A stretch of 64,000 nucleotides of DNA from Patescibacteria group bacterium (lineage in GTDB: Bacteria > Patescibacteriota > Minisyncoccia > Phycocordibacterales > Phycocordibacteraceae). The notes under the pieces are model-generated. The model ran no database searches, was not told the origin of the DNA, and saw only the letters and a program-made list of their open reading frames with translations. The stretch's first letter is position 1; each line of letters opens with the position of its first letter. The stretch is taken from the NCBI GenBank assembly GCA_030837225.1, contig JAUPKX010000007.1, positions 158,657 through 222,656 of the forward strand, written 5' to 3'. Below, in pieces: positions 2,587-50,412 of this stretch. The position numbers were made by a program, and so were the translations under genes.

Positions 2587-3798
2587 CTAAATCTTATCTG
2601 AAAGCGAGTAGATCGGTGTAATCATCGCCATCGCGAACACTCCCACGGCGCTTCCGATGAAGAGCATGAGTATCGGCTCAATGATAGTGGAGAGGTCTTT
2701 GGTGCGTTCCTCAACATCGTTCTCGTAGTACTGCGCGACCTGCCCGAGCATATCCGCCACTTTTCCCGTCTCCTCCCCTACCGCGATCATGTCACCCACG
2801 AAGACAGGATAGAGCTTGGCATGGTCAGTGAACGAGACAGAGAGTGTTTCACCCTTACGAACACGCTCTTCAGCTTCCTTAATCACTTTTCCAAACGAGT
2901 TGTCCCCTACCACTTCCGCAGCAATACTAAGAGCGGAAAGCATCTCAACGCCTGACGACAAGAGCGAAGACATCGCGCGAGCGGCTCTGGCACTCATAGT
3001 CTCGCGAACGAGCTCGCCAATAACCGGAACACGGAGCGCAAGGAAGAGCGTTATGCGGCCTCCAATCTTTGATTTCAAGAAGAATATAAAACCGGTAATG
3101 AAAACTACGAGCATAACGAACACGAGAATCGCATTCGCCGCCATAAAGTCTGATGCACCGATGATTACTTTCGTTGCAGTCGGCAGCTCGACGTTAAGCT
3201 CCTTGAAAGTATTCGACAAGGTCGGCACCACGAAGATCATCATGAGGATACCGATTACGATAATCGCAACGAGAATGATGGCCGGATAGATCATGGCGCC
3301 CTTCACCTTCTTCTGAAGCGTATTGGCCTTATCCATCTGGCGCGCAACAACCGCGAGCGCATCAGCCAAGGTTCCCGATTCTTCGCCTGCCTTACTCATC
3401 GCAATGAAGAGATCCGAGAAGACTTTCCGATGTCTGGCGAGTGCCTCATGGAAAGACGACCCTTTCTTCACCTCTTCCTCAAGATCCATAACGATCTTCT
3501 TCAGCGCCTTATTCTTTGTCTGTCGCTCGATAACGGAGAGCGCGCGGGTTAGCGTAAGGCCAGCAGCAATCATGGCTGCTAGATTCTTGGTAAAGGTAAT
3601 CTTCTCGTCGGTCTTTACGCCGGTACCAATCGTTATCTGTGTCCATGCAGGCAAGAGTGTGCCGCTTCCCTCTTGTACAGAAACAACAACACCTCCCTCT
3701 TTCTCTACCTGCTCGTACACTGCAAAGCGAGACGGCGCATCAATAACGCGCTTCGTCTCTTCTCCTTCGGGACTTTTCGAGGTTACGCGAAATTTCAT
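2587..3798 (-). CDS. pilC: type IV pilus assembly platform protein PilC (GspF family)
   Basis: 403 aa, two GspF-like repeats with three TM segments typical of T2SSF/PilC; sits next to PilB. Confidence 0.85.
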   Translation of the reverse strand: MKFRVTSKSPEGEETKRVIDAPSRFAVYEQVEKEGGVVVSVQEGSGTLLPAWTQITIGTGVKTDEKITFTKNLAAMIAAGLTLTRALSVIERQTKNKALKKIVMDLEEEVKKGSSFHEALARHRKVFSDLFIAMSKAGEESGTLADALAVVARQMDKANTLQKKVKGAMIYPAIILVAIIVIGILMMIFVVPTLSNTFKELNVELPTATKVIIGASDFMAANAILVFVMLVVFITGFIFFLKSKIGGRITLFLALRVPVIGELVRETMSARAARAMSSLLSSGVEMLSALSIAAEVVGDNSFGKVIKEAEERVRKGETLSVSFTDHAKLYPVFVGDMIAVGEETGKVADMLGQVAQYYENDVEERTKDLSTIIEPILMLFIGSAVGVFAMAMITPIYSLSDKI

Positions 3799-3867
3799 AA
3801 AAGAATCGTAGCATGCAAAACGATGTGGGCCGGATTCTCACGAGGAGAATCCGGCCCGGCGGCGATA

Positions 3868-4044
3868 CCTACACCCCCTTCGACACGAAACCGTAGCTCT
3901 GCACCTCCTTCGGGTCGAGGTGGCCACGCACGAATGCGACGAAGAAGAACAGGGTCACTGCGCTGCTGATCACAACGACGGGACTGAAACCGAGCGCGTA
4001 CGCAACGAGTGCAGCGAACATACAAATAACAAACAGACGACGCA
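3868..4044 (-). CDS. small membrane protein (about 58 aa), not in ORF track
   Basis: Minus-strand ATG near 4044 preceded by GGGAGGACCACA (SD-like); translation MRRLFVICMFAALVAYALGFSPVVVISSAVTLFFFVAFVRG... two hydrophobic helices; coordinates approximate. Confidence 0.3.
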
Positions 4045-4124
4045 TTGTGGTCCTCCCATATCAGTCCCTGTTTGGCTCAATACCGAACAATCGGGATGAT
4101 TAAGACACCTTATACTATAAGGCT

Positions 4125-5879
4125 CTATTCGGAAACCGCTCGCAACACCTCCTCAACCGACGTAATGCCGCGCGTGGACTTATAGAGCCCGTCCTCAAGC
4201 ATCGTGAGCATGCCTTCCTTGCGAGCTTGCGCTTCAATGGCGTCGGGTGCTGCGTTGTGAAGAATGAGCTCGCGAAGCGCAGACGAAAGCATCAAGACCT
4301 CATGAATACCAATACGGCCGGAGTATCCGTCCTCACACTGAGCAGACGGTACCGGCTTGTAGAACGGAACTTTATCCATGGTTGTTCCTTCCTTCACAAG
4401 CTTCTCTTCGAGAAGAGCCTTCATAACATTGTCGAACTTATCGTCGCTAGCAACCTTGCTACGTTCCATCGCATCAAGCGCGTACTGCTCTTTGCCGTCA
4501 CAGAGTCTGCGCACAAGACGCTGACCCATAACCATGCGGAGCGTTGAGACCAAGAGGAATGGTTCCACACCCATGTCCATAAGTCGTGGGATAGCGCCTG
4601 CAGCGGAATTCGTGTGAATGGTTGAGAGTACGAGGTGTCCCGTAAGTGCGGCGTTAATCGCAAGAGATGCTGTCTCCGCATCACGAATCTCTCCCACCAT
4701 GATGATGTTTGGGTCCTGGCGAAGGAGGGCACGAAGACCGTTCGCGAACGTAAACCCTATGGCTGGGTTCACCTGTGTCTGATTCACGCGCTTCATCTGG
4801 TACTCGATCGGGTCCTCAACGGTAGAAATGTTTACGTCCGGCGTATTCAAAATATCGAGGATGGTATAGAGGGTCGTGGTCTTTCCGGAACCAGTCGGTC
4901 CGGAAATCAAAATGATACCCGTAGTCTGTTTCATAGACTGATGCACCCGCTCAAGCCCCGAGCCATGGAACCCGAGCACATCGAGGGTAAATCCTTCGCC
5001 GGTCTCCCTCAACAAACGCATAACGATCTTCTCGCCGTAGTAGGTCGGGAGAAGTGACACGCGGAAGGACACCTTGTCCGCTTCAGTCTCCATCTTGAAG
5101 CGTCCGTCCTGCGGAAGACGCTTCTCATCGAGCTTCAAATTCGCAAGCACCTTGATGCGCGCGGTGATGCCGGGGGCGGCAGTGCGCGGCAACGTCATCG
5201 CGTCGTGCAAGACCCCGTCGATGCGGTACCGCACGAGTACCTCTGTCTCCATGGGCTCGATATGAATGTCGGATGCCTTTTGGATGATGGCGTGACGAAG
5301 CAACGTATCAACAATGCGTACAATCGGCAGGTCCTCGGCCATCTTCTTGAGATCCTCGCCTGATGCCTCGTCTCCAGACTGTCCGTCCTTTATTAGGTTA
5401 ATGCGGCCCGCTTCCGTGGTGATGAGGTCGCCGAACTCTTCCTTTAAAGACTTCTGGTACTGCAGCAGTACATTCTTCAAAGACTCGTCGTCTGTTAGGC
5501 GCGGAAGAATCTTTAGTCCTGTGGTCTTTCGGACCGAATCGATAGAGGGAAGATCCTCAGTATCAAGCATCGCTACCTCGAGCGAGTTTCCGTCCTTCTT
5601 AAACGCAACAATGGAGTGAGTACGTGCAATTGGTTCTGGAATCAAAGAGAGGACGTTCAAGTCGATCTTCTTGTCCTTCAAGTTAACGAACGGGATGCCG
5701 AGCACGTATGCCTTAATGCGACGAAGGCTATCGCTTGAGAGAAGTCCCTGCGCAATCAATATGTCGCCAATGGATTGCTTCTTCCGTTTCGCTTCTTCGT
5801 CTGCAGCATCGACATCCTTTCGAGACACGAGTCCGGAGTCGAGGATAAATTCTTTGAGTTCGCTTTCAGAGACCTGCAT
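4125..5879 (-). CDS. pilB: type IV pilus assembly ATPase PilB (GspE family)
   Basis: GspII N-domain, Walker A SGPTGSGKTTTLY, Asp box, Walker B, His box; likely start MQVSESELKEF at 5879 (track start 5993 is an upstream extension); TATACT -10 just upstream. Confidence 0.9.
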   Translation of the reverse strand: MQVSESELKEFILDSGLVSRKDVDAADEEAKRKKQSIGDILIAQGLLSSDSLRRIKAYVLGIPFVNLKDKKIDLNVLSLIPEPIARTHSIVAFKKDGNSLEVAMLDTEDLPSIDSVRKTTGLKILPRLTDDESLKNVLLQYQKSLKEEFGDLITTEAGRINLIKDGQSGDEASGEDLKKMAEDLPIVRIVDTLLRHAIIQKASDIHIEPMETEVLVRYRIDGVLHDAMTLPRTAAPGITARIKVLANLKLDEKRLPQDGRFKMETEADKVSFRVSLLPTYYGEKIVMRLLRETGEGFTLDVLGFHGSGLERVHQSMKQTTGIILISGPTGSGKTTTLYTILDILNTPDVNISTVEDPIEYQMKRVNQTQVNPAIGFTFANGLRALLRQDPNIIMVGEIRDAETASLAINAALTGHLVLSTIHTNSAAGAIPRLMDMGVEPFLLVSTLRMVMGQRLVRRLCDGKEQYALDAMERSKVASDDKFDNVMKALLEEKLVKEGTTMDKVPFYKPVPSAQCEDGYSGRIGIHEVLMLSSALRELILHNAAPDAIEAQARKEGMLTMLEDGLYKSTRGITSVEEVLRAVSE

Positions 5880-5952
5880 GCTGTTTGTGTGTAAAGTATA
5901 GCGCGCCGCGAGATGAATCGCGGCGCGCATATGGTTTATGTCGGGGAAAGAA

Positions 5953-6348
5953 TCAGTCGTCGTTCTTGAGTGGATGCGGCCAAAACACCACAAAGCCTAT
6001 CCTCTCAACCTTCTCTCCCTCAGAAGATTCATGTTCACCTGTGAACTTCTTGAAGGTGTACCCGTCCGCCATGAAAAGCCGCTCGGCGTGTAGGAGCACG
6101 CTCCCGGCTTCAGGATACTCAGCGGGCAGGAGAATGGTCGTCGAGAAATTGCCTTGAGAAGCTTCCAGGTCGATTCTCTCAAGCCACGTCCCCTCATATG
6201 CTCGGCGCACCGTAACCTCGATACTTGTCGAAGCTTCAGGCTTCTGGGTGGGATCGAATATTCTGAAGACATCTTCGGCGCTTGCCTGCGCAAGTGCTCC
6301 CAACGCCTTGTATCCACTACTCTCTGCACGGTTCATCAGAACCTCCAT
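5953..6348 (-). CDS. hypothetical protein (131 aa from MEVLMNRAESSG)
   Basis: ORF with GAGGATTAACTATG RBS at internal Met; no recognised domain. Confidence 0.4.
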   Translation of the reverse strand: MEVLMNRAESSGYKALGALAQASAEDVFRIFDPTQKPEASTSIEVTVRRAYEGTWLERIDLEASQGNFSTTILLPAEYPEAGSVLLHAERLFMADGYTFKKFTGEHESSEGEKVERIGFVVFWPHPLKNDD

Positions 6349-13999: not shown

Positions 14000-15220
14000 C
14001 TAGAGAGCGTCTATTGCCTCGTCTGCGAGGTCCTGTGCCTCTTCAGCGAAGTCTATAGCGTCTTCATAGTCTTCGTCATCAAGGGCGTCTTCTGCGTCAT
14101 TGAGTGCGTCCTCAGCTTCGTCCAGAAGATCTTCTGCCTCGTTTATTCTTGAGCTTGAGCTATTTGAGTCATCAATCTCATCCTGCGCGTCGTTGATCGC
14201 TTCCTGCGCATCATCGATAGCGTCTTCTGCATCAGATTCGTCGTCATCACTGTTGCTGCTTGAACCTATTTCGTCGAGTGCTTCGTCAATAAGATCTTCA
14301 GCTTCGTCTGCTAGATCCATGGCTTCCTCGTAGTCCTCATCATCGAGAGCGTCCTCTGCCTCGCTTATGAGGTCCTCTGCTTCGTCGAGGAGGTCTTCAG
14401 CATCGTCAGTGTCTTCGCCATCATCATTTGCAGCATCGACCTCGTCCCTTGCGTCGTCGAGCGCATCATTTGCCTCGTCGATAGCGTCTTCAGCGTCTCC
14501 TTCGTCGGCATCGTTGTTGTCATCGTTGTCATCATCATTTCCACTGCCGTCGATCTCATCGAGAGCATCATCTATAAGATCAAGGGCCTCGTCCGCGAGC
14601 TCGTTTGCATCGCTATAATCCTCGTCAACGAATGCGTAGAGCGCAAGCGTGACCTTCTTATCTGCGTTAACGAGGAGTGCCTTTGAGTCTCCAACCTCAT
14701 CGCCTTCGTCTTTGGCGTTTTCATAATCATCCATCGCGTCCTCATGTGCGTCACGCGCATCAAGAATTGCGCTCCGTGCCTCAGTCTGCGCGGTGGAGGT
14801 TGGCTTTGGTGTCGGAATAACAGGCGTAGTTAGTTGTGGAGCGGGTACCGTTGGCTTCGGGACCGCTGGCGACGTGAGTACGATGTACTTCGCGCGCGAG
14901 ACCGGACCGAAGGTTCCTGTTGCAGGACTAATCCCGTTTGCAGTCTGCCACTTCTGGACTGCCGCTACGGTCTTCGTCTGGTACTGGTTTGTCTCATATC
15001 CCTTTGAGCCGACACCTGATGTCGAAATCGTAAAACCATTTGCGTTCAGGTACTGCTGGAGGCAACGTACCGCCTCGCTCTCGACACCGAGTTCAAGATT
15101 GCTTGTAAAGGTACAGGTCGCAGCGCGCGCTTGTGCTGGAATCATGAGCGTACTTGCAACGAGCATCATGCCGAGCACGATAAATGCTGCAGCGCTCTTT
15201 TGGATAGTGGTGATATTCAT
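14000..15220 (-). CDS. secreted peptidoglycan-binding (PG_binding_1-like) protein with very acidic Asp/Glu repeat tail
   Basis: Signal peptide; domain LGVESEAVRCLQQYLNANGF...VAAVQKWQTANGISPATGTFGP; Pro-rich linker; about 200 aa of D/E repeats (EAEDALDDEDYEEAMDLADEAEDLIDEALDEI occurring twice). Confidence 0.65.
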   Translation of the reverse strand: MNITTIQKSAAAFIVLGMMLVASTLMIPAQARAATCTFTSNLELGVESEAVRCLQQYLNANGFTISTSGVGSKGYETNQYQTKTVAAVQKWQTANGISPATGTFGPVSRAKYIVLTSPAVPKPTVPAPQLTTPVIPTPKPTSTAQTEARSAILDARDAHEDAMDDYENAKDEGDEVGDSKALLVNADKKVTLALYAFVDEDYSDANELADEALDLIDDALDEIDGSGNDDDNDDNNDADEGDAEDAIDEANDALDDARDEVDAANDDGEDTDDAEDLLDEAEDLISEAEDALDDEDYEEAMDLADEAEDLIDEALDEIGSSSNSDDDESDAEDAIDDAQEAINDAQDEIDDSNSSSSRINEAEDLLDEAEDALNDAEDALDDEDYEDAIDFAEEAQDLADEAIDAL

Positions 15221-20003: not shown

Positions 20004-20798
20004 TTAGAGCGTAATGGACACAGGGCAGTGGTCAGAACCGTATATATCAGCGTGTATCTCAGCGCCCTTAACTTTTGCTGAGAATTTCTTTGAGGCGAAT
20101 ATGTAATCGATTCGCCAGCCTACATTGCGATCACGCGCCATCCGAAACGGGCTCCACCAGGAGTAGTGGCCGTTGCCTTCGGTGAACATTCGGAACGTAT
20201 CGATGAATCCTGCTTCCTGGATCTGATCAATACCTGCTCGCTCTTCCTTGGTATATCCGTGCCCGCCCTCGTTTGCCTTAGGGTTTGCGAGATCGTCTGG
20301 CGTATGTGCGACGTTCAAATCCCCGCAGAAAATAACAGGTTTCTCCTCTTCGAGACGCTTCATATAGGTTAGGAAAGCAGGGTCCCACTTTTCGTGGCGA
20401 AGACTGAGACGGGATAGGTCTTCCTTGGAGTTCGGAGTGTAGACCGACACAACCCAGAACTGGCCCATATCTGCAGCGATAATACGGCCCTCCTCGTTCG
20501 GGTCTCCGTACTCGTCGTCAGAAAGGCCGTATTCCTTGGCTATATCTTCGGGCATACCAAAAAGCACATCCTCGGGAATCTGCTTGGTGAATATGGCAGT
20601 TCCGCTGTAGCCCTTTCGATTCTTTGCTGAATGCCAGTATTCCTCATATCCCATGAGATCAACAGGGGATTGGTGCTGCTCAGCTTTGGTTTCCTGGAGA
20701 CAGATGATGTCTGGCTTTAATTGCTTTATAAACGGCTCAAACAGGCCCTTCTTGTGAACGGCTCGGATGCCATTTACGTTCCAAGAAACGATTCTCAT
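20004..20798 (-). CDS. xth: exodeoxyribonuclease III (AP endonuclease, EEP family)
   Basis: MRIVSWNVNGIRA...CLQETK...GDLNVAH...SDHCPV motifs. Confidence 0.9.
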   Translation of the reverse strand: MRIVSWNVNGIRAVHKKGLFEPFIKQLKPDIICLQETKAEQHQSPVDLMGYEEYWHSAKNRKGYSGTAIFTKQIPEDVLFGMPEDIAKEYGLSDDEYGDPNEEGRIIAADMGQFWVVSVYTPNSKEDLSRLSLRHEKWDPAFLTYMKRLEEEKPVIFCGDLNVAHTPDDLANPKANEGGHGYTKEERAGIDQIQEAGFIDTFRMFTEGNGHYSWWSPFRMARDRNVGWRIDYIFASKKFSAKVKGAEIHADIYGSDHCPVSITL

Positions 20799-20846
20799 GC
20801 GGGTATTGTATACCGTTAGAGTTCGATCCCTACTCTGCCAGCTACT

Positions 20847-21076
20847 GATATAAAAAGATAACGCCCAGGAACGAAGTTCCTGGGCGGCACCGTCCTGATT
20901 CGGATTTCACCAGTACCATCATAGGGATTCCTACCCTAGGCCTTTTAGTGTCAGAACACCTGCTCTTGCTGGATTAGGTGCGTCCAGCTCACCCTGTATT
21001 CCTTCCCATGGCCGGGACTACCATATCGGGAAGACCCCACTGTTTCACCGCCGCTCCGTGTGGACGAGTTAGTCGG
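20847..21076 (-). ncRNA. candidate small RNA (about 225 nt) bounded by a TTGACA promoter and a strong intrinsic terminator, identity unknown
   Basis: Minus strand: TTGACA (plus 21106-21111) with weak -10 TACTGT about 16 nt on; 11-bp stem CGCCCAGGAAC-uucg-GUUCCUGGGCG plus U-tract (plus 20847-20886); no ORF over 12 codons; xth has its own TATACA box after the terminator. Confidence 0.3.
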
Positions 21077-21126
21077 CCTGAGTACAGTAGCATATAGTGT
21101 AATTCTGTCAACCCCTATTTAAGTAA

Positions 21127-21151
21127 GTTCCAACATCGTCCCAGACTGCCA
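21127..21151 (+). repeat. 25-bp motif GTTCCAACATCGTCCCAGACTGCCA (copy a)
   Basis: Identical to copy at 21513-21537; related copies at 50413-50437 and 63257-63281. Confidence 0.8.
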
Positions 21152-21178
21152 GCAATATTTCCATGCTAGATTCATGAT

Positions 21179-21508
21179 ATGGATATTCCCCTGCAATCTA
21201 TACTTCTAATAGTACTAATTGTCGCAGTGCCGCTACTGCTCTCCGGAGCTCTTATATACGGCCATATAAAAGAGGGAAGAATAATGGGTGCCGCCCATTT
21301 CCCATTCCTTCAATCATGGACCAAGTCATTTTGGTATTCGACTGGGATGCCGAAGTATGTGAGTAGAAAACACGAGCCCTTAGAGTTTTGGTTCGGATTC
21401 ATCCTCCGAATGATCCCGCTTATAGGGATGTTGCTGCTACTAATGCTGATGGGCGTTAGTGCAGTACTCGGAGTGACCTTCTACGAACTTATAGATTTGC
21501 TTTTTTAA
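21179..21508 (+). CDS. small membrane protein (109 aa), flanked by 25-bp direct repeats
   Basis: Two to three TM helices (LLIVLIVAVPLLLSGALIYG; IPLIGMLLLLMLMGVSAVLGV). Confidence 0.5.
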   Translation: MDIPLQSILLIVLIVAVPLLLSGALIYGHIKEGRIMGAAHFPFLQSWTKSFWYSTGMPKYVSRKHEPLEFWFGFILRMIPLIGMLLLLMLMGVSAVLGVTFYELIDLLF

Positions 21509-21512
21509 AAAG

Positions 21513-21537
21513 GTTCCAACATCGTCCCAGACTGCCA
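21513..21537 (+). repeat. 25-bp motif GTTCCAACATCGTCCCAGACTGCCA (copy b)
   Basis: Lies in the 30-bp gap between converging stop codons of the small membrane gene and the recombinase gene. Confidence 0.8.
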
Positions 21538-21538
21538 A

Positions 21539-22447
21539 CTATCCTCGCTTCGAATGGAACTTCTTATGCACCTCTCGTAGATGCGAGTCTGTAACGTGAG
21601 TGTAGATCTGCGTCGTATTGATAGATGCGTGGCCAAGGAGCGCCTGAACGGAGCGAATGTCCGCACCATTTGAGAGGAGATCGGTGGCAAACGAGTGTCG
21701 CATAACGTGCGGAGTCACTTTCTTCGTGATGCCGGCCTTCGTGGCATAGGTCTTAATGAGAAGCTCTATGGAGCGGGGAGTAAGGCGGGTAGGGATTCTC
21801 TTCTTGGTCTCAGACTTTCTGGCTGTACTAACGAACAATGCTGGCTCCATATCCGTACGAGCCTTTAGATAGGCTCTCGTAGCGGCCTTGGCAGCGTCTG
21901 AGAGGAATACGACACGCACCTTGTCGCCCTTTCCGCGGATAGGGAAGTCATCACGGGAAAGATCGAGGTCTGAATCAAGCGAACATAGTTCTGAAACACG
22001 AAGTCCCGTAGAGAAGAGCATCTCAAGAATCGCCTTGTCGCGAAGCGCTTTCTCGCTCTCGCCATCCGTTGCTTTGAGAAGGCGGTCGAGCTCGAGCGGG
22101 GAAATAAGGTCCAAGTGACGCTCCGGAACCTTCGCAAGTTCAATCTTCTCGGGAGAAAGCGAGGGAATGTCACGCTTCCGGAGGAACTTGAGGTACGCAC
22201 GGAGCGCGATGAGGTAGTAATTCTGGGTCCGGCGCTTCATCGAGTCCTTATTCGTGCCCGGCTGGCGATTAAGCCAAAGCCTAAACTCACGCACCTTCTC
22301 CTCGGTTATAGCTCCCGTATCCTTAATCTGAGCGTATTCAAAGAATCGAGAGAGGTAATGGTCATAGTTTTCTATGGTCTTTACCGCTCTACCTCGCTCT
22401 ATCTCGAGATACTCAAGGAATTGACGCTTCATCTGTACCGCATCCAT
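21539..22447 (-). CDS. tyrosine site-specific recombinase, XerC/XerD-like
   Basis: N-terminal SAM-like domain (FLEYLEIERGRAVKTIENYDHYLSRF), catalytic HVMRHSFAT and LLGHASINTTQIYTHV (R-H-R-H-Y); track start 22486 is a TTG; ATG at 22447 preferred. Confidence 0.85.
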   Translation of the reverse strand: MDAVQMKRQFLEYLEIERGRAVKTIENYDHYLSRFFEYAQIKDTGAITEEKVREFRLWLNRQPGTNKDSMKRRTQNYYLIALRAYLKFLRKRDIPSLSPEKIELAKVPERHLDLISPLELDRLLKATDGESEKALRDKAILEMLFSTGLRVSELCSLDSDLDLSRDDFPIRGKGDKVRVVFLSDAAKAATRAYLKARTDMEPALFVSTARKSETKKRIPTRLTPRSIELLIKTYATKAGITKKVTPHVMRHSFATDLLSNGADIRSVQALLGHASINTTQIYTHVTDSHLREVHKKFHSKRG

Positions 22448-22521
22448 ACGAAAAGAGTAGCACGCAGGTTCGCACAATATTCTCAAGGTCTCCTTAACGT
22501 AATACGCTATACTTTCTCTAT

Positions 22522-26956: not shown

Positions 26957-26972
26957 GGACACTGTAAAGAGA

Positions 26973-27003
26973 AAAGCCCCGGACCAGTCCGGGGCTTTTC
27001 TCC
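26973..27003 (+). terminator. intrinsic terminator (AAAAGCCCCGGACCAGTCCGGGGCTTTTCTCC)
   Basis: Near-identical to terminator at 27765-27795. Confidence 0.6.
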
Positions 27004-27020: not shown

Positions 27021-27761
27021 ATGCTAGCATCTCAGGTAATGATTTCTGTACTGGTTGTGGCACATAACGAGGAAGCTCATATAGCAGCCTGTCTCGACTC
27101 ACTAATGCGGCAGACGCTACGACCGGAGGAGATTCTAGTCATCGTGCACAACTCGACTGATGCTACCGCCGATATCGCCAGTAAATATCTTGTGCGCGTT
27201 ATAGAGTACACGGGCCCGGCCGGATCTATCTATGCGCGCATGAAGGGATTTGAGTCTGTCGCTGGAGATATTGTGGCCTGTATCGATGGGGATGCGGAAG
27301 CGAGTCCCGGGTGGCTGCACAATATTGTGTTGCCCCTCAACAGGCCAACCGTATCGCTTGTAGGAGGACCCATCTTCTGGAAGAACACTCCTTTTATGCA
27401 GATACTAAGTCTGTGGATATTCTTTGGATACTACCCACTCACGCGTCTTCTGAAGCCAGAAGCCTTTGTAGACGTGTGGGGTGCAAACTTTGCACTTCGA
27501 ATACGAGATTACAGAGCGGTTGGTGGATTATCAGGACTTGAATCCGTACGTGATGCACTTGGTTTCGAAGAAACGTACTGGCCTGATGATTTATATCTAA
27601 CATTAAGACTTCGAACTCAAGGTTCGGTTGCCATAGCCCATCGAGCAACGGTTTCGGTTACAGGAAAGGAGCGGGGTAACGCGCATGCATTTATGCTTTC
27701 AGCACGTAATCGCAAGCGAGCACAAATGATTATTCGATATATGAGAAAAGGAAGTTTATAA
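27021..27761 (+). CDS. family 2 glycosyltransferase
   Basis: ISVLVVAHNEEAHIAACLDSLMRQTL ... CIDGDAEASPGWL (DxD) motifs. Confidence 0.75.
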   Translation: MLASQVMISVLVVAHNEEAHIAACLDSLMRQTLRPEEILVIVHNSTDATADIASKYLVRVIEYTGPAGSIYARMKGFESVAGDIVACIDGDAEASPGWLHNIVLPLNRPTVSLVGGPIFWKNTPFMQILSLWIFFGYYPLTRLLKPEAFVDVWGANFALRIRDYRAVGGLSGLESVRDALGFEETYWPDDLYLTLRLRTQGSVAIAHRATVSVTGKERGNAHAFMLSARNRKRAQMIIRYMRKGSL

Positions 27762-27764
27762 AGA

Positions 27765-27795
27765 AAAACCCCGGTCAAGTCCGGGGCTTTTCTTG
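27765..27795 (+). terminator. intrinsic terminator (AAAACCCCGGTCAAGTCCGGGGCTTTTCTTG)
   Basis: Hairpin plus T-tract; sequence family shared with 26973-27003. Confidence 0.6.
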
Positions 27796-29101: not shown

Positions 29102-32100
29102 ATGCAGCACCTCGAAGGCCTTAACGACGCGCAACGGGAAGCCGTCCTAGCCACCGAGGGTCCGGTCTCAGTCCTCGCGGGTGCCGGATCGGGCAAAACA
29201 CGGGTTCTAACCACCCGCATCTACCATCTTATAAAGGAAGGGGTGCCCGCTAACCGGATTCTCGCCGTTACCTTCACCAACAAGGCCGCCCGAGAGATGA
29301 GAGAGCGCCTCGCGCACAGACTCGGGGATAGTCCGCTCCCGTTTGTAGCTACGTTCCATGGCCTTGGCCGGGATATTCTCCAGCGATACGGCAGTCGCAT
29401 TGGTATCTCTCGTTATTTCACGATATTTGATCGCGATGACTCGAAATCCGCCATAAAGAGGGTATTGAAGGAGATGGATATCGACCCAAAGGAGATGAAT
29501 CCAAACTTTGTCCTTTCCCGCATCTCGAAAGAAAAGGGAGAAGGCTCCACTCCCGATGCTTTCCGTGAGAAGTACGCACAGAAGAGCTTCCAGTCCCGTG
29601 TTATCGCTGAAGTCTGGCCCAAGTACGAAGCAATACTCAAGAAGGAGAAGGCGCTCGACTTCGACGATCTTATTTGTCTTCCGGTGCGCTTGCTTCGCGA
29701 GCACGAGGACATCCGTAGGGAAGCGGAGCAGCTCTACAGCCACGTACACGTGGACGAGTTCCAAGACACCAACGAACTGCAGGGCAAGCTCGTCGACATG
29801 CTCACACAACCACAGAACAATGTGTTCGTGGTAGGGGATATTGACCAGTGTCTTCTTGCCGGAACAGAAGTGCGCATGGCAGATGGTTCGAAAAAATCTA
29901 TCGAACTAATTCAAGAAGGGGATTCTGTTCTGTCTAATTTTGGAAGTGGGGATATGCGGGCCGCAAGCGTTATAAGAGCCATGAAGCGAGAGTTCTCTGG
30001 AGACTTGGTTCACATCATCACTATGTCTGGACGCACCCTTACAAGCACGCCGGAGCATATTCACTTTGCCGGATACCGACTAGGTGTCGTACCCCAGAAA
30101 TACTTTACCTACCTGATGTACAAAAAGGGGAAAGGGTGGCGTCTTGGCGTCTCGCAGACCTATACCAACGGCCAGCGCGCGCCCATGATCGGATTTCAGC
30201 AGCGATGCAACCAAGAGCACGGGGACAGTGTGTGGATTGTTGGCGTATTTGACTCGGCACAGGAAGCACGCGTGCACGAGTACAAACTCTCGTTAACGTA
30301 TGGCATTCCAACGCTCCCTTTCGTAGCGCGAAAGGGAAGCGTAGGCGGGTATATCCATGACCAGGAAACGCTTGATGCGGTATTCGCATCATTCGATACT
30401 GATGCCGCCGCAAGAAAACTCTTATCAGACCGTGGACTCTCTCTTTCCTATCCCCATCATCGTGCTCAAGCAACGCGCAGCAACAGAAGGAATATTCTTA
30501 TCACACTATGTGGGGACCACAGGGGTAGCACACCCATGCATCGCATATCGATTGTTGGGAGCGATGATATAGGAAAAGAGGCACTGGTAGCGGCAGGATT
30601 TTCAGTACGTTCAGCAGGGTTAGGTTCGATGAGTTGGAGATTTGAGACCGCCCATGCCGATTACGGCAAGGCGAGAGAAATCTCTGATCGACTCCTCATA
30701 ATATTTCCAGATGCTCAGGTCGTAGAAACCGCGCGTCTCGGAGGAAAGAAAACAAACCCTAAGGATTCGAACTCATTGCCATTTCTTCCCGCTGCCTCGG
30801 TGCTGCCAGGTATGGCCATGTTCGACGACGAAGCTGGATGGGATATCGTCGAGTCTGTAGAACGTGTTCCTGGGAACAAGATACCCGTCTATGACTTAAA
30901 CATTGAAGGGACACATAACTTCATTGCAAACGGTCTTTCAACACACAATTGTATCTACACCTGGCGAGGCGCTACAATCGAGAACCTGCTCAAGTTCGAA
31001 GAGCAGTACGAGAACGCAAAGACCATCGTGCTCGCGCATAACTATCGTTCAACAAAAACAATTGTTGCTGCAGGAAACCAGATAATCGAGAAGAATCAGA
31101 ACCGCAAGGATAAGCATGCAGTAACCGACAACGCGGATGGGGAACCGATACGCTTACACATTGCGCGCAACGCAGAAAGCGAAGCTCGATGGGTGGCGCG
31201 TGAAGCGAGGAAAGCTATACGGGAAGGCGTTTTACCTGAAGAAGTTGCCGTACTGTTCCGTACGAACTTCCAGTCTCGTGCTCTTGAGGAAGCGTTCCTC
31301 TCAGAAGGCCTCCCATACAAGGTGCTCGGTACGCGCTTCCTTGATCGCAAAGAAGTGAAGGACGTACTCGCATGGGTCAGACTTGCACTTGATCCAGAAC
31401 GCGAAGTGGACCGCATCCGCGCCGTACAGGCACCAACGCGCGGAATAGGGAAAGTGACCCTCGGCAAGCTTATCGACGGAAAGAGGGACACTTTGAAGCC
31501 TGCAGAAGTGAAGAAGGTAGCGGCATTCGAAGCTATCGTTATGGAACTGAACGAACTCGCAAAGATTGCGGTGCCGAGCGAATTCGTAAAGCTCGTCATT
31601 GAGCGCTCAGGATTAGCCGAAGCGCTGCGTAAGGGCGGGGAAGAGGACGCCGAGCGCCTTGAGAACGCGAAGGAGCTCGCAACCTTAGCCAGCCGCTATG
31701 ACGGCATGCCAGGAGAGGAGGGAATTGCAGCATTTCTGGCGGAGTCCGCCTTAGCTGGCGACCAAGACGAGCTCGACGCACCAGGCACTGCCGGCATTAC
31801 CCTTATGACCGTACACGCAGCCAAGGGACTTGAGTTCGATACCGTATTTGTTACCGGCATGGAGCAGGGATTGTTCCCGCACGAAGCGAGAGAGGGGGAG
31901 AAGCGGGACGAGGAAGAGGAGCGCCGCTTGTTCTATGTAGCGGTTACGCGCGCAAAGCGCAGGCTTAATCTCACGCTCGCAACCGTTCGTCGCATCTATG
32001 GCACCGACTTCGCCTCGGAACCTTCCATGTTCATCCGCGACATAGACGAGGGGCTTATCAGTTTCTCAGAAGGGGACGAGCTCTATGGAGAGCGTACGAT

Positions 32101-32110
32101 ATACATCTAG
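29102..32110 (+). CDS. uvrD: UvrD/PcrA-family DNA helicase interrupted by an intein in motif III
   Basis: Walker A AGSGKTRVLT, DEFQDT, then VVGDIDQ | intein | CIYTWRGA, downstream helicase motifs IV-VI. Confidence 0.9.
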   Translation: MQHLEGLNDAQREAVLATEGPVSVLAGAGSGKTRVLTTRIYHLIKEGVPANRILAVTFTNKAAREMRERLAHRLGDSPLPFVATFHGLGRDILQRYGSRIGISRYFTIFDRDDSKSAIKRVLKEMDIDPKEMNPNFVLSRISKEKGEGSTPDAFREKYAQKSFQSRVIAEVWPKYEAILKKEKALDFDDLICLPVRLLREHEDIRREAEQLYSHVHVDEFQDTNELQGKLVDMLTQPQNNVFVVGDIDQCLLAGTEVRMADGSKKSIELIQEGDSVLSNFGSGDMRAASVIRAMKREFSGDLVHIITMSGRTLTSTPEHIHFAGYRLGVVPQKYFTYLMYKKGKGWRLGVSQTYTNGQRAPMIGFQQRCNQEHGDSVWIVGVFDSAQEARVHEYKLSLTYGIPTLPFVARKGSVGGYIHDQETLDAVFASFDTDAAARKLLSDRGLSLSYPHHRAQATRSNRRNILITLCGDHRGSTPMHRISIVGSDDIGKEALVAAGFSVRSAGLGSMSWRFETAHADYGKAREISDRLLIIFPDAQVVETARLGGKKTNPKDSNSLPFLPAASVLPGMAMFDDEAGWDIVESVERVPGNKIPVYDLNIEGTHNFIANGLSTHNCIYTWRGATIENLLKFEEQYENAKTIVLAHNYRSTKTIVAAGNQIIEKNQNRKDKHAVTDNADGEPIRLHIARNAESEARWVAREARKAIREGVLPEEVAVLFRTNFQSRALEEAFLSEGLPYKVLGTRFLDRKEVKDVLAWVRLALDPEREVDRIRAVQAPTRGIGKVTLGKLIDGKRDTLKPAEVKKVAAFEAIVMELNELAKIAVPSEFVKLVIERSGLAEALRKGGEEDAERLENAKELATLASRYDGMPGEEGIAAFLAESALAGDQDELDAPGTAGITLMTVHAAKGLEFDTVFVTGMEQGLFPHEAREGEKRDEEEERRLFYVAVTRAKRRLNLTLATVRRIYGTDFASEPSMFIRDIDEGLISFSEGDELYGERTIYI
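29849..30949 (+). mobile_element. intein (367 aa) within uvrD
   Basis: Starts Cys (CLLAGTEVRMADG), block B GRTLTSTPEH, C-terminal VYDLNIEGTHNFIANGLSTHN followed by +1 Cys; flanking extein halves re-form helicase motif III. Confidence 0.8.
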
Positions 32111-38521: not shown

Positions 38522-38929
38522 ATGGAGTACCAGATACCACAGTTCATCGAGGTTGAGGACAAGATATTCGGACCGTTCACGCTGAAGCAGTTTATCTATG
38601 TCGCTGGTGGGGTGGGACTTTGCGCCATTGTGCTCCTATATTTGCCACTTTGGCTTGGTGTAATCATCGGTCTGCCGGTAGGACTGCTAACCTTGGCGCT
38701 CGCGTTCTATAAGATAAACAATAAGCCGTTCGTTGAGATCATGGAGGCGGCATTTAACTACTACATCGGGGACCGACTATACCTTTGGAAGAAAGAGAAG
38801 AACCAGGTAGACGCTCCTGTTATCGTGAAGCCTGCGGATCCTGCAAAGCTCGGCCTCACGCAGAGCAAGCTCAAGGACTTGGCCTGGTCGCTCGACATCA
38901 AGGACCGCGAGAACAACAATCCTGCATAG
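38522..38929 (+). CDS. PrgI/VirB3-like small membrane protein
   Basis: QIPQFIEVEDKIFGPFTLKQFIYVAGG followed by two TM helices, the PrgI-family signature. Confidence 0.6.
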   Translation: MEYQIPQFIEVEDKIFGPFTLKQFIYVAGGVGLCAIVLLYLPLWLGVIIGLPVGLLTLALAFYKINNKPFVEIMEAAFNYYIGDRLYLWKKEKNQVDAPVIVKPADPAKLGLTQSKLKDLAWSLDIKDRENNNPA

Positions 38930-38932
38930 ATC

Positions 38933-39562
38933 ATGGCATCTACCAAGACTACCCAATCATTCGTACCTGTTAAGGAAGTAAGGAACGGCGTCATCGTCCT
39001 CAAGGGCGACGGGTACCGAGGTGTACTCATGTGTTCGTCGATTAACTTCGCTCTGAAAGGGGAGGATGAGCAGCGCGCCATCATCGGCGGATTCCAGAGC
39101 CTTTTAAATACGCTCGATTTCTCCATACAGATCGTTGTCCATTCACGTAAGACCGATATACGCCCTTATCTCGCACTACTTGAGACTCGCATGCAAGAGC
39201 AGACGAGCGAGCTTATGCGGTTGCAGCTTCGCGAGTACGTCGCCTTCATTCGGAACTTCATTGATTCGAGCGACATCATGACAAAAATGTTCTACATCGT
39301 AGTGCCGTACACGCCAGGAGCCGGAGGCATCGTTGCCAGTGCCGCACCGTTCCTTGGAGGAAAGAAGTCCGCAAACGACGGAGCGACAGATTCGTTCGAA
39401 GAGAATCGTGTGCAGCTCGAGCAGCGCATGTCGCTCGTGGTATCGGGCCTTGCCAGTAGCGGGGTACGCGCAGTGCCGCTTGGCACTGAGGAAATAATCG
39501 AGTTGTTGTACCGTTCATTCAACCTGAGCGAGCTCGAGAACCCTATCCATCTATCCGCGTAA
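38933..39562 (+). CDS. VirB4-like ATPase, N-terminal portion (separated from the ATPase body by one in-frame TAA)
   Basis: Same reading frame as 39566-41380; stop TAA at 39560-39562 then TCT ATG. Confidence 0.45.
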   Translation: MASTKTTQSFVPVKEVRNGVIVLKGDGYRGVLMCSSINFALKGEDEQRAIIGGFQSLLNTLDFSIQIVVHSRKTDIRPYLALLETRMQEQTSELMRLQLREYVAFIRNFIDSSDIMTKMFYIVVPYTPGAGGIVASAAPFLGGKKSANDGATDSFEENRVQLEQRMSLVVSGLASSGVRAVPLGTEEIIELLYRSFNLSELENPIHLSA

Positions 39563-39565
39563 TCT

Positions 39566-41380
39566 ATGGCACTACTCGACTTCCTCGGAAAGAATAAGAA
39601 GGATGAGGCTCCCGCAATGGCACCGGTACTTCCGAAGGACATCTACGCGGAAGGGGAACTTCAGCTCGCTGACGCTATCGCGCCTGCGGCGCTTAGGGTG
39701 GGTCCGCGCGAGCTCGAACTCGGTGAGAAGGTGTCTCGAACGTTCTATACCATCTCTTATCCACGCTTCCTTGTTGATAGCTGGTTCACGCCAATCATCA
39801 ATCTCGACAAGGTGTTCGATGTTGCTATATTCGTCCATCCTATTGAGACCGGTTCCGCACTTCGAGGATTCCAGAAGAAAGTGGCGGAAATCGAGAGCCA
39901 GATATCAGACAGGGAAGAGAAGGGTTTGGTGCGCGACCCGATGCTCGATACGGCGTACCGAGATCTCGAACAGCTCCGCGATCAGCTTCAGCAGGCTGAG
40001 GAGCACATCTTCGAGGTAGGGCTCTATATAACCCTCTATGGTGATTCGAAGGAGGATCTCGACAAGATTGAGGGTGATGTTCGTGGCATCTTGGACGCGA
40101 AACTCGTCTACACGAAGCCAGCACTCTTCCAGCAAGAGCAGGGGTTCCGTTCGACACTCCCTTTGGCAAACGACGAGCTTATGGTAACGAGCAAGTTGAA
40201 TTCGTCGCCTCTTTCCTCGATATTCCCATTCGTGTCCTTTGACCTTACGAGTGACCGCGGCATCCTGTACGGCATCAACCGCCACAACGCCTCCTTGATC
40301 CTCTTCGATCGCTTCTCGCTTGAGAACTACAACTCGGTAGTGTTCGCGAAGTCCGGTTCCGGTAAGTCCTATGCGGTGAAGCTCGAGATACTGCGAACGC
40401 TTATGTTCGGTGCAGACGTTATCGTTATCGACCCTGAACGCGAGTACGAGAATCTCGCTTCAGCGACCGGAGGCCGCACCTTTAATATCTCGCTCTCTTC
40501 GGAGCACCACATCAATCCGTTCGATCTTCCACCGGTTAAAGAAGACGAGGAGCCGTCCGACATTCTCAGGTCTAACATTATCAACCTGGTTGGTCTCTTC
40601 CGCATCATGCTCGGAGGACTTACACCCGAGGAAGACGCTATCGTCGATCGCGCTATCACTGAGACCTACGCCCTTAAAGACATTACTGGGGACGCTGACT
40701 TCACGGGCGTAGAGCCGCCGCTTCTTTCAGACTTCGAGAATGTGCTTTCGGGCATGGAGGGCTCAGAGTCGCTCGTTATACGCCTCTCGAAGTATACGCA
40801 CGGTACCTGGGCCGGGTTCATCAACCAGCCGACCAACATCGATATCAACAAGCAGTTCATCGTCTTCTCGGTGCGCGACATGGAGGATGAGCTGAAGCCG
40901 GTGGCGATGTATATCATTACGCACTTCATTTGGAACGCGGTCCGTCACGAGCTCCGCAAGCGTCTTCTCGTGATCGACGAGGCATGGTGGATGATGAAGT
41001 CGGAGGATACGGCATCGTTCCTCTATAGCGTCGCGAAACGCGGCCGCAAGTATTATCTCGGTGTTGCAACGATAACGCAGGACGTTGAGGACTTCTTGAA
41101 GAGCCCGTACGGTCGCCCAATTCTCACCAACTCCTCAATGCAGCTCCTGTTGAAGCAGTCGCCAACGACGATTAACGTACTCAAGGAAACATTCAACCTA
41201 ACCGATGAGGAGAAGTTCCTGCTGCTTGAGTCGGGAGTGGGGGAGGGGCTCTTCTTTGCAGGACTCAAGCATGTCGCCATTAAGGTCGTCGCATCGTATA
41301 CCGAGGACCAGATCATAACTTCAGATCCGTCACAGCTTCTGCAGATAAAGCAGGAGAAGATGCGCAATGAGGCCGCATAA
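39566..41380 (+). CDS. VirB4/TraE/CagE-family conjugative/type IV secretion ATPase
   Basis: Walker A FAKSGSGKSYAV, Walker B LLVIDEAWWMM, DUF87/AAA_10-like architecture. Confidence 0.85.
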   Translation: MALLDFLGKNKKDEAPAMAPVLPKDIYAEGELQLADAIAPAALRVGPRELELGEKVSRTFYTISYPRFLVDSWFTPIINLDKVFDVAIFVHPIETGSALRGFQKKVAEIESQISDREEKGLVRDPMLDTAYRDLEQLRDQLQQAEEHIFEVGLYITLYGDSKEDLDKIEGDVRGILDAKLVYTKPALFQQEQGFRSTLPLANDELMVTSKLNSSPLSSIFPFVSFDLTSDRGILYGINRHNASLILFDRFSLENYNSVVFAKSGSGKSYAVKLEILRTLMFGADVIVIDPEREYENLASATGGRTFNISLSSEHHINPFDLPPVKEDEEPSDILRSNIINLVGLFRIMLGGLTPEEDAIVDRAITETYALKDITGDADFTGVEPPLLSDFENVLSGMEGSESLVIRLSKYTHGTWAGFINQPTNIDINKQFIVFSVRDMEDELKPVAMYIITHFIWNAVRHELRKRLLVIDEAWWMMKSEDTASFLYSVAKRGRKYYLGVATITQDVEDFLKSPYGRPILTNSSMQLLLKQSPTTINVLKETFNLTDEEKFLLLESGVGEGLFFAGLKHVAIKVVASYTEDQIITSDPSQLLQIKQEKMRNEAA

Positions 41381-41391
41381 CGCACTCTGCC

Positions 41392-42165
41392 GTGGCCAAC
41401 GAACGGATTCAAGTGAGGCAAGGGCAAGGCACCGATGATTCTTTAAATAAGGTCGCGGAGCTGTTTGCTTCGCGGGGTGAGAAGTTTGATGAAGAGGATG
41501 CGCAGATGCTCCAAGAGAAGCTGCCGACCGATCCTGGGTTTCCGTTCATGATTACGGCGTTGGTGGTTATTAAAGACCTTCTCGATTTAGTTCTCGATGC
41601 AACCGTTATTCTCGCTATTGTTGCCTGGGTCCTGTCGGCCATAATCGGCATTATCCTGGTGTTCTGGACGTTCGGAAAGATTAGCGGAGGCTGGTGGAAG
41701 AAGGGCGCCATACAGTGGCTTTGGAAGCGATTCTTCTTGATGATTAGTGTCGAGCTAATTCCGTTCCTTAACATAATGCCTACGAACGTCATTTACGTAC
41801 TCATGGTGCATTACCGAGAGAAGAAGATTGTGAAGCTTTTTAACGAAGCGCTCGAGATATTCCATGGCGGGGGTGGGGGCAAGCCAGGGGTATCGGGACG
41901 ACAGGCATTTCTGCGAGGACTCGCAAACAGGGCGGAGGAAGACGAAGAAGAAAATACCGTATCTAAAGCGGGCAGGACCATTACCCGACTTACACAATCA
42001 CCCGCAGGGAAGATGGTTAGAACCGCAACTAAGTTTGATCCGACTAAAAGAACTGCGGTAGGCACAGCACGATTCTCGAGTATGAACGCCACCAGGCAGA
42101 AGCAACTCAGTCGAAAAACGTCCCAAGGGCCGCAAGGGTCCGAAGCACTACGCGAAGCAGCGTAA
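41392..42165 (+). CDS. membrane protein, hypothetical (T4SS-like operon)
   Basis: Three TM helices then Gly-rich and basic disordered tail. Confidence 0.45.
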   Translation: MANERIQVRQGQGTDDSLNKVAELFASRGEKFDEEDAQMLQEKLPTDPGFPFMITALVVIKDLLDLVLDATVILAIVAWVLSAIIGIILVFWTFGKISGGWWKKGAIQWLWKRFFLMISVELIPFLNIMPTNVIYVLMVHYREKKIVKLFNEALEIFHGGGGGKPGVSGRQAFLRGLANRAEEDEEENTVSKAGRTITRLTQSPAGKMVRTATKFDPTKRTAVGTARFSSMNATRQKQLSRKTSQGPQGSEALREAA

Positions 42166-42219
42166 CCTTACCCACGCCGCAAGCAGGGGACTGTCTCTAC
42201 TTCGGTATATACTGAGCAC

Positions 42220-43197: not shown

Positions 43198-43203
43198 CCA
43201 CTT

Positions 43204-44445: not shown

Positions 44446-44448
44446 ACC

Positions 44449-46456: not shown

Positions 46457-46783
46457 CTACCGTACTTCGGGGAAGGCGCGAGTGAGGAGTTCTTCGAGCT
46501 CCTCTTTAAGAACTGGAAAGGGGATGGTCTGGCTTCCGGGGCGGGCATAGACAATGAGTGCGCGGGTAGGGAGGCACCAGGGCTTCAGTACCGAAAGGAC
46601 CCGACGCTTCAAAAGGTGCCGGCCAACGGAGAGTTTTGAGACTTTTTTAGAGACCACAACCGCGCAGCCACCTTCGGTTTGGTTATCTCGTATAGATAGG
46701 GAAAAATGGCTTGAAACAAGCCTTTTTTCAGGTCCGGTAGGCGCAAAATGCGCCCGAGAGAGGCGCAATTTACGTGGAATCAT
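46457..46783 (-). CDS. rnpA: ribonuclease P protein component
   Basis: Basic 108-aa protein, KKVSKLSVGRHLLKRRV motif; start overlaps rpmH stop (TAATG). Confidence 0.75.
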   Translation of the reverse strand: MIPRKLRLSRAHFAPTGPEKRLVSSHFSLSIRDNQTEGGCAVVVSKKVSKLSVGRHLLKRRVLSVLKPWCLPTRALIVYARPGSQTIPFPVLKEELEELLTRAFPEVR

Positions 46784-47018: not shown

Positions 47019-47020
47019 CG

Positions 47021-50379: not shown

Positions 50380-50412
50380 GAAAGTTTAGATTGCTTCCAA
50401 TTTATCATGCTG

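Follow-up and report, generated by a model that had tools for sequence, protein, structure and literature searches.

We analyzed a 64-kb stretch of a Patescibacteria genome (64,000 nt of contig JAUPKX010000007.1; hereafter, the window), in which a short direct repeat lies beside a gene for an Xer-type tyrosine recombinase. The repeat, the 25-mer GTTCCAACATCGTCCCAGACTGCCA, occurs on the + strand in exact copies at 21127–21151 and 21513–21537, with a start-to-start spacing of 386 nt. As a first-pass annotation made from the sequence had proposed, these identical copies bracket a 330-bp gene (21179–21508, +), which encodes a predicted membrane protein of 109 aa, and a single nucleotide separates the end of the second copy from the stop codon of the converging recombinase gene. 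The same annotation gave the gaps on either side of the small gene as 28 and 5 nt; the flanking layout stands, and the distances are in fact 27 nt from copy 1 to the ATG and 4 nt from the stop codon to copy 2, a trivial off-by-one. Variants of the 25-mer lie further along the same strand, at 50413 (three mismatches) and 63257 (two mismatches). All four copies and variants are intergenic, and the number of matches expected by chance in the window, obtained from dinucleotide-preserving shuffles, is 0.00.

The recombinase gene, as called in public assemblies, occupies 21539–22447 on the minus strand and encodes 302 aa; the corresponding open reading frame (ORF) spans 21539–22486. The protein carries Phage_integrase and SAM-like domains (Pfam) and passes the NCBIfam model NF040815 recomb_XerA_Arch (243.3 bits against a cutoff of 220); it fails both integron integrase models (TIGR02249 integrase_gron, 126 bits against 265; PRK15417, 82 against 435). 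Among solved structures in PDB, it is closest to P. abyssi XerA (4a8e, 5.8e-42) and XerD (1a0p, 5.5e-37). The alignment to P. abyssi XerA is full length and includes the catalytic motifs GLRVSEL, HxxRHSFAT, and LGH...TQIY; the match to IntI4 (2a3v) covers residues 226–288 only. The earlier call of a XerC/XerD-like tyrosine recombinase is thus sound, and we refer to the protein as a XerA-like member of the "Cand" subgroup. Xer-related recombinases of candidate phyla were noted by Smyshlyaev et al. (PMC8138268), and the window Xer belongs there. Its homologs, at 77–100% identity, fall into more than 120 clusters (clustering at 90% identity), of which the named ones are metagenome-assembled genomes (MAGs) of Patescibacteria/Parcubacteria. 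Across the 64-kb window, we detected no recombinase or transposase family other than Xer.

Conservation around the repeat exceeds the 25-mer, extending over a unit of approximately 35 nt, from −6 to +28, with none outside it. This unit, which we term the C-type (cassette) site, has the consensus ANAAAG-GTTCCAACATCGTCCCAGAC-nGCCAGCAA; a cassette ends in two parts, a conserved left arm of ~28 nt (AAAG-GTTCCAACATCGTCCCAGAC-nG) and, after it, the core CCAGC(A/C)A. Copy 1 corresponds to a C-type site at 21121–21155 (+; C profile E = 1.7e-11) and copy 2 to another at 21507–21541 (+), which also matches the C profile. The right part of copy 2 reads GCCAAC-TA and includes the xer stop codon (21539–21541, complement TAG). 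A third site, at 20815–20842 (+; S0 profile E = 4.7e-6), is of a different type (B-type; hereafter, S0). Its sequence, GTTAGAGTTCGATCCCTACTCTGCCAGC, reproduces the T-arm and acceptor 3′ end of tRNA-Gln as a stand-alone copy, and the site forms the left boundary of an array of two cassettes. This site, the presence of two cassettes, the tRNA-Gln-3′-end-like start of the array, and the wide distribution described below all go beyond the first-pass annotation.

Of the two cassettes, that nearer xer (cassette B; body at 21156–21506, +) contains the 109-aa membrane protein gene, an ORFan with only two homolog clusters and without a Pfam or NCBIfam match. Cassette A (20843–21126, −; 284 nt) lies between S0 and copy 1, which is both its right end and the left boundary of cassette B. 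It has no credible ORF. On its minus strand it bears a TTGACA hexamer (21111–21106) and a strong intrinsic terminator (20886–20862), which together imply a transcript of ~230 nt. A homolog with 75% identity adjoins a C site in two metagenome loci (L271 and L248), with conserved blocks and the same promoter-like element. Cassette A has no match in Rfam, and its fold z-score is only −1.6. From these sequence features, it is probably a small RNA cassette.

Comparison with relatives revealed that the content of this locus varies within a fixed framework. The gene order rpsO-xer-[variable]-xth-cca is kept, and what stands between xer and xth differs even where Xer is identical. Thus, two loci with 100% Xer identity (L002 and L120) contain the 109-aa cassette and a YunG cassette; in L002, where the flanks are 99–100% identical to the window, a 401-nt cassette with the YunG gene replaces the non-coding cassette A. 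Homology between the window and L002 breaks exactly at the sites, directly behind CTGCCAGC of S0 and where copy 1 begins. In three loci with 99% Xer identity (L286–L288), the interval is empty. The sequence of this allele is xth-CAT gcgggtattgtataccgaccaaag CTTCGATCCCTAGTCTGCCAAC TA tgcacgcttggaatg(xer), in which the left arm of S0 is fused to the right part found in copy 2 of the window (GCCAAC-TA), including the xer stop codon. By sequence, the empty allele is the junction predicted for an unoccupied attachment site (attB), with the right part of copy 2 as the original right half of attB. Other relatives carry a single Trans_reg_C cassette with decayed sites (L284 and L290; Xer 96–97%), a 2OG-oxygenase gene and FolB with no recognizable sites (L289; Xer 98%), or, on the same xth-S0-...-C-xer platform, two unrelated cassettes (L228; Xer 77%). 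The overlap of attB with the xer stop codon is kept in this clade down to 77% Xer identity.

Cassettes are also shared between arrays. Cassette B recurs at 84% nucleotide identity between two C sites of an array in another organism (L291), with homology confined to window positions 21123–21541; the first site of this array is an S0, and the sequence to its left is the same as in tRNA-Gln genes. The fifth cassette of another locus (L039), which follows a C site, is the first cassette of L079, where it follows a stand-alone S0. The two are 86% identical over the full 435 nt, and their homology begins right after the left CCAGCAA and stops at the right CCAGCAA. Two further arrays of the window, described below, provide additional cases: the cassette with a 210-aa gene in array 2 has a homolog with 82% nucleotide identity as the second cassette of L195, after a C site, and the CYTH cassette of array 3 is the first cassette of L011, the 67% homology beginning at CCAGCAAT of S0 and stopping where the C site ends. 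The empty site in a strain with 99% Xer identity, the different cassettes in other strains, and the presence of cassette B in another organism's array strongly support the initial suggestion of an integrative or integron-like cassette.

The sites themselves indicate where exchange takes place. S0 retains its own bases at +20/21, where C sites of the same array have CC, TG, or AG; at +25, the empty attB and copy 2 have A, and the hybrid S0 and copy 1 have G. The base pattern at these positions therefore locates the crossover between +21 and +25, and the exchange point is in the GCCA of the shared core.

With arrays 2 and 3, the 64-kb window has three arrays and at least seven sites. The left site of array 2 (GTTTGATCTCCAGACCCCAGCAA; 49687–49709, +) is intermediate between S0 and C and directly follows the dnaN stop codon. 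The cassette (49710–50412, −) contains a 210-aa gene without a Pfam match (49747–50379, minus strand) and is followed by a degenerate C site, GTGCCAACATCGTCGCAGACTGCCT (50413–50437, +; C profile E = 4.9e-5). Array 3 starts at a decayed S0-like site, GTTAGACTCCCACCCGCCCGGCAATA (62647–62672, +), recognized by comparison with L011, in which the same CYTH cassette follows an intact S0. The cassette, with a CYTH-domain gene (62694–63254, +; CYTH E = 1.8e-9), ends in a C site at 63251–63285 (+; core 63257–63281; C profile E = 7.3e-11). A tRNA-Lys(TTT) gene lies just 3′ of this site, at 63326, and an ORF that starts at 63399 within its last bases (+) continues beyond the window; given its weak match to LAGLIDADG_3 (E = 0.0056), this may be a homing-endonuclease-like gene. 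No tRNA-Gln was found in the window, and the three S0-type sites there are stand-alone.

We scanned genomes, one per species, for the exact 20-mer GTKCCAACATCGTCSCAGAC, which yielded at least 115 stretches, and a metagenome scan with the same 20-mer yielded at least 120 more. Approximately 18 of the genome stretches (L008, L009, L020, L026, and others) are unrelated, consisting of high-GC alphaproteobacterial coding sequence (Rhodobacterales and others) with flanks identical among themselves. All 35 matches in IMG/VR (L124–L158) are this same coding sequence on viral or gene transfer agent-like contigs, and we rejected a phage attP origin of the site on these grounds; judged by its sequence context, the alphaproteobacterial match is coincidental. 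The array statistics that follow rest on the listed matches, 97 candidate phyla radiation (CPR) genome loci and 120 metagenome loci, both of which are lower bounds. The at least 97 genome loci belong to Patescibacteria MAGs labeled Paceibacterota/Parcubacteria, Nomura-, Wolfe-, Kaiser-, Berkel-, and "Saccharibacteria," and carriers among the listed loci are mostly Patescibacteria of the Parcubacteria/Paceibacterota type. The earlier suggestion that the repeat marks other accessory loci is thereby borne out, in arrays 2 and 3 of the window and in these at least 97 genome and at least 120 metagenome loci. A metagenome scan for S0 joined to the window-specific flank gave no matches, the sample of L002 evidently being outside that collection.

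These loci share a strict architecture. Within a locus, sites are co-oriented in 317 of 320 cases in the genome set and 368 of 368 in the metagenome set, among the matches listed, with a median spacing of 541 nt and a maximum of 11 sites per locus. S0, GTTCGATCCCTAGTCTsCCAG(CAA/CCA), has the same orientation as the C sites and is the first site in 81 of the 82 loci that have one (40/41 genome and 41/41 metagenome loci); in none of them does a C site lie within 1.5 kb before it. At 13 of the 20 loci tested, ARAGORN called a tRNA-Gln(TTG/CTG) whose T-arm, acceptor, and discriminator are formed by S0; at the remainder, S0 is a stand-alone copy of ~24 nt. Where S0 is the end of tRNA-Gln, the tRNA 3′ end is intact. 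The C-site repeat is a distinct sequence, not a duplicated tRNA 3′ segment: it has CCyAGwCTsCCAGC(A/C)A in common with S0, plus AGGTTC further left, and nothing else.

The units between sites are small and diverse. Each interval contains one small gene (median interval length, 514 nt), the longest ORF filling ~79% of the cassette. Genes occur in both orientations (106 + versus 71 −), 14 of 212 cassettes have no ORF of at least 50 aa, and some contain terminators and TTGACA elements. In a sample of 46 cassette proteins, Pfam families included NUDIX, serine and alpha/beta hydrolases, cupin, AKR, SDR, HAD, DAGK, DnaJ, HD, glyoxalase, and CYTH, among others, and no recombinase. ORF clustering found cassette genes to be almost non-recurrent and, over the 97 genome loci, found no recurrent recombinase in or beside the arrays. 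Because no cassette encodes a recombinase, the enzyme would act in trans.

Taken together, these data make it likely that the repeat is the recombination site of an integron-like gene-capture system based on cassettes, found mostly in Parcubacteria/Paceibacterota-type Patescibacteria. In the mechanism we propose, a cassette is a unit of ~0.3–1 kb, usually with one small gene in either orientation and in some cases with promoter-like or terminator elements, that ends in a C site. Its chromosomal target, attB (S0), would be either the 3′ end of tRNA-Gln, in the CCAG-CCA form of the S0 sequence, or the stand-alone ~24-nt copy. Site architecture, alleles with and without cassettes, cassette boundaries, and the sharing of cassettes between arrays are all read directly from sequence. 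From them we infer a circular intermediate and a conservative, site-specific mechanism, by which a cassette in circular form would enter attB, or a cassette site already in place, through recombination in the shared GCCA/CCAGC core. The product would have the tRNA-like arm at its left end and a full cassette site after each cassette, and repeated insertions would build co-oriented arrays. In the window, the attB that overlaps the xer stop codon now holds two cassettes, one non-coding and one for the 109-aa membrane protein, and two further one-cassette arrays start at 49687 and 62647. The model predicts a circular junction for cassette B of ...GATTTGCTTTTTTAAAAAGGTTCCAACATCGTCCCAGACTGCCAGCAATATTTCCATGCTAG, an empty junction in the window strain of GTTCGATCCCTACTCTGCCAACTATCCTCGC, and a single-cassette junction of CCCTACTCTGCCAGCAATATTTCC.

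The best candidate for the enzyme is the window Xer, acting in trans as the cassette integrase, an assignment to which we give slightly less than even confidence. In its favor, it is the only such enzyme detected in the window, its unusually high conservation goes together with that of the site, attB and its stop codon overlap in this clade, and L160 has a decayed S0/C pair immediately upstream of the xer gene. The first-pass annotation had proposed that the neighboring recombinase could shuffle several cassettes, and of this the candidacy survives, with the scarcity of Xer at other loci and the lack of dif or attC symmetry set against it. It had also offered the alternative of a chromosomal Xer adjacent by coincidence. 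The protein is indeed of the housekeeping XerA/XerD-like type, in a conserved rpsO-xer-xth setting, but coincidence fits poorly with a site that overlaps the xer stop codon down to 77% identity.

The consensus site contains six dyad matches, a count of six or more being reached by 89% of shuffles, and its minimum free energy of −1.0 kcal/mol compares with a shuffle mean of −2.9 kcal/mol; in this shuffle test, we found neither dyad symmetry beyond chance nor a hairpin in the 35-nt site. Nor did we find in it a dif-like layout (two inverted ~11-bp arms around a 6–8-bp center) or imperfect inverted repeats of the attC type (R″/L″...L′/R′) that fold single-stranded. Without dyad symmetry and without a hairpin, a dif-like or attC-like identity was rejected. 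The site is not a dif also because the window holds the replication origin, not the terminus: rnpA-yidC and dnaA-dnaN, at 46457–49686 (dnaA/dnaN at 47–49.7 kb), mark the origin region near 46.8–47 kb. The cumulative GC-skew minimum, near 26 kb, does not coincide with these origin genes; a terminus location of the sites was rejected on the positions of both. A known RNA family was likewise rejected, Rfam giving no match at gathering thresholds over the whole window and none at E ≤ 1 over 20700–21600. Readings of the repeat as a sigma-70, extracytoplasmic function (ECF), or sigma-54 promoter were dismissed: downstream genes begin at no constant distance (27, 57, and 44 nt) and lie in either orientation, and a promoter scan over 20700–21700 found nothing. 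Separately, 59 of 560 cassette sites (~10%; for example in L007, L014, L015, L048, L090, L097, and L115) bear a 32-nt left extension in fixed register, TCTaGACAGAACCTAnCAtanaTTGCAnAAaG, which is absent from the window. On the opposite strand, site plus extension read TTGGAA, 18 nt, TGnTAGGTT, and could from this sequence act as an outward promoter for reverse-oriented cassette genes.

Several observations weigh against the cassette model or against the part we assign to Xer. No circular cassette contigs were found among the 120 listed metagenome loci, and homologous recombination within xth and xer, on either side, is another means by which the allele differences seen among strains at a single locus could spread. 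The model leaves the arrival of stand-alone tRNA-like left arms at new loci unexplained. As read from the alignments, all of the conservation falls to one side of the crossover, a pattern not typical of Xer/dif, of other simple tyrosine recombinase core sites, or of attC; for Xer in particular, the site is asymmetric and most arrays are far from xer. Using tblastn with the window Xer (up to ~14 kb per locus), we detected no homolog in the 97 genome loci, for which the cutoff was relaxed to E < 10, and one in the 120 metagenome loci, in L228, which has the same platform as the window. Thus, 216 of the 217 listed site loci are without a nearby Xer homolog, and adjacency to Xer is therefore clade-specific synteny. 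Conversely, in two relatives with Xer at 78–88% identity (L159 and L162), no site lies closer to xer than 20 kb. Breaks of Logan contigs at copy 1, which might have been taken as population heterogeneity, were dropped and are not used as evidence; a site of at least 30 nt repeated throughout the metagenome suffices to account for them.

The same cassette system might be served by an enzyme other than the adjacent Xer, either a trans-acting nick-and-join enzyme of the HUH/relaxase type that reads sequence wholly 5′ of the cleavage or an integrase encoded elsewhere, and we regard this as a serious prospect, if a tentative one. Site conservation wholly left of the crossover, with no dyad or hairpin, is the geometry of a nic site and not of an Xer core; the arrays are almost never near xer; and with a type IV secretion-like cluster in the window (PrgI, VirB4/TraG-like, TrbC), conjugation-type DNA-processing enzymes may exist in these genomes. 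However, we detected none of the relaxase, HUH, serine recombinase, or transposase families in the 64-kb window, no such enzyme family recurs in the 97 site loci or among cassette proteins, and the CPR site is absent from IMG/VR viral contigs, where the 35 matches are all unrelated. Integration at tRNA 3′ ends is, moreover, reportedly a trait that classically belongs to tyrosine integrases, which counts against a non-tyrosine enzyme. It is quite improbable that there is no dedicated recombinase at all and that the repeats are short homology anchors for RecA-dependent swapping after natural transformation. C sites do have 28–35 identical bases in common, near the minimum for homologous recombination, type IV pilus genes (T2SSE/T2SSF) are present in the window, and whole arrays could be exchanged via the conserved xth and xer flanks. 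Yet cassettes move between positions behind S0 and positions behind a C site, with only ~7–16 nt of homology available on the left, and a 20-mer invariant across many species needs sequence-specific selection; the precise fusion of S0 left and attB right at the empty site, the S0-first order, and the strict co-orientation of arrays also argue against swapping by RecA alone.

That arrays at a tRNA 3′ end, tandem and with direct repeats, should be decayed remnants of tRNA-targeting genomic islands or prophages that formerly had their own integrases seems to us highly improbable. The units are single genes with the median length of 514 nt, none of the 217 listed loci contains integrase remnants, and no IMG/VR viral contig bears a CPR-site match; the repeated site is distinct from the tRNA end and conserved across many species, and the same tiny units are found intact in different arrays. 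We give still less credence, close to none, to the repeat as a regulatory or RNA-processing signal (a transcription-factor site, terminator, insulator, or tRNA-like processing element) with a merely coincidental xer neighbor. The intergenic position of the site, often after a stop codon, its resemblance to a tRNA 3′ half, and the potential outward promoter formed with the fixed extension at ~10% of sites would suit such a signal. Its position is nevertheless independent of gene orientation, homology between strains breaks exactly at it, it has no RNA structure and no Rfam family, and the empty and occupied alleles and S0-first order would be left unexplained. Transcription-factor sites, which the first-pass annotation had itself raised as an objection to its proposal, are contradicted by these alleles and by boundaries that ignore gene orientation.

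As judged from sequence, the CPR cassette system is functionally closest to the integron, and it has the defining properties of none of the integron, Xer/dif, and tRNA-island families; the kind, site-specific gene-cassette arrays, is known, and the components are new. Like integrons, it consists of arrays of small, diverse, mostly single-gene cassettes without a recombinase gene, places a platform first (S0, like attI) and a recombination site after every cassette (like attC), and has cassettes that are common to several arrays and variable between strains. In contrast to structured attC, the CPR site is 35 nt without dyad symmetry, and its platform is the tRNA-Gln 3′ end or a copy of it. Integron cassettes are promoterless and co-oriented, with a platform promoter near intI, whereas CPR cassettes occur in both orientations, some with their own promoter-like or terminator elements. 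There are also several CPR arrays per genome (three in the 64 kb), usually with no integrase beside them, and the sole nearby recombinase is XerA/XerD-like and below the IntI threshold.

Among Xer-dependent systems, integrative mobile elements exploiting Xer (IMEX) at dif and the pdif modules of Acinetobacter plasmids are likewise small recombinase-less modules with short flanking sites, presumed to be mobilized by host Xer and accumulating in tandem at their target; the CPR sites differ in that they are not dif-like, lie away from the terminus, and are co-oriented rather than alternating, with Xer use only a candidate. Xer/dif itself has in common with the window an Xer-family recombinase, in conserved rpsO-xer-xth synteny, but comprises a single terminus site per replicon as opposed to at least seven sites within a window in the origin region. 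In XerS/difSL-type modules, the recombinase gene stands beside its own site, a chromosome-dimer resolution site with dyad symmetry. In the window clade, too, the attachment site abuts the recombinase gene, overlapping its stop codon, but the CPR site is an asymmetric insertion hotspot, and similar sites lie far from xer. The tycheposons of Prochlorococcus are integrative elements that target tRNA genes (bioRxiv 10.1101/2020.12.28.424599). These and integrase-less cis-mobilizable elements (CIMEs) resemble the CPR arrays in insertion at the extreme tRNA 3′ end with an intact tRNA, tandem accretion, and units that rely on an enzyme in trans. They are, however, kilobase-scale islands, whereas CPR units are ~0.5 kb with one gene, and no integrase-bearing element was found beside the CPR site in the listed loci. 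Instead of a duplicated tRNA segment, the CPR site is a tRNA-end mimic with ~16 nt in common, and it has stand-alone targets away from tRNA.

The window has several further features. The type IV secretion-like cluster, at 38522–45666 (+), comprises a PrgI family gene, a VirB4/TraG-like P-loop ATPase, a TrbC/VirB2-like pilin, and several large ORFs without a family match. Type IV pilus/type II secretion system E and F genes (T2SSE/T2SSF) lie at 2587–5993, and RuvC and RuvB genes are also present. A UvrD/PcrA-type helicase gene (29102–32110, +; 1002 aa) contains an intein (Intein_splicing, Hint) between the helicase N- and C-terminal domains; the helicases of relatives are intein-free and 635–658 aa long. 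A minus-strand gene at 14000–15220, with internal repeats of ~130-nt periodicity, encodes a 406-aa protein with PG_binding_1 and DUF4398 matches, which is probably surface-associated. Finally, two near-identical bidirectional terminator hairpins, AGAAAAGCCCCGGaCcAGTCCGGGGCTTTTCT (26965–27001 and 27757–27793), bracket a glycosyltransferase gene at 27021–27761.

We found no description of the motif, in either orientation, or of CPR integron, cassette, tRNA-Gln, or hypervariable-island systems in the open-access literature searched; an earlier description may exist in other journals. CPR bacteria have tiny genomes and few recognizable mobile elements, and we know of no general route by which they obtain accessory genes. 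If the cassette model is true, it would provide such a mechanism for accessory-gene acquisition across CPR/Patescibacteria, with hundreds of arrays in public data, and a second, independent solution to gene-cassette capture besides integrons. A bolder version, which we advance with some hesitation, is that a single housekeeping-type Xer moonlights as the cassette integrase on an asymmetric 35-nt mimic of the tRNA-Gln 3′ end, with tRNA-Gln, the end of its own gene, and other loci serving as platforms, and that this is a main route by which minimal CPR genomes gain and shuffle accessory genes. Were Xer responsible, the site would be a new type of Xer substrate, asymmetric and tRNA-mimicking. The 20–35-nt motif also gives a simple handle by which metagenomes could be mined for the flexible genes of uncultured CPR bacteria, and a defined attB/attP pair could become a genetic tool for these hard-to-manipulate organisms.

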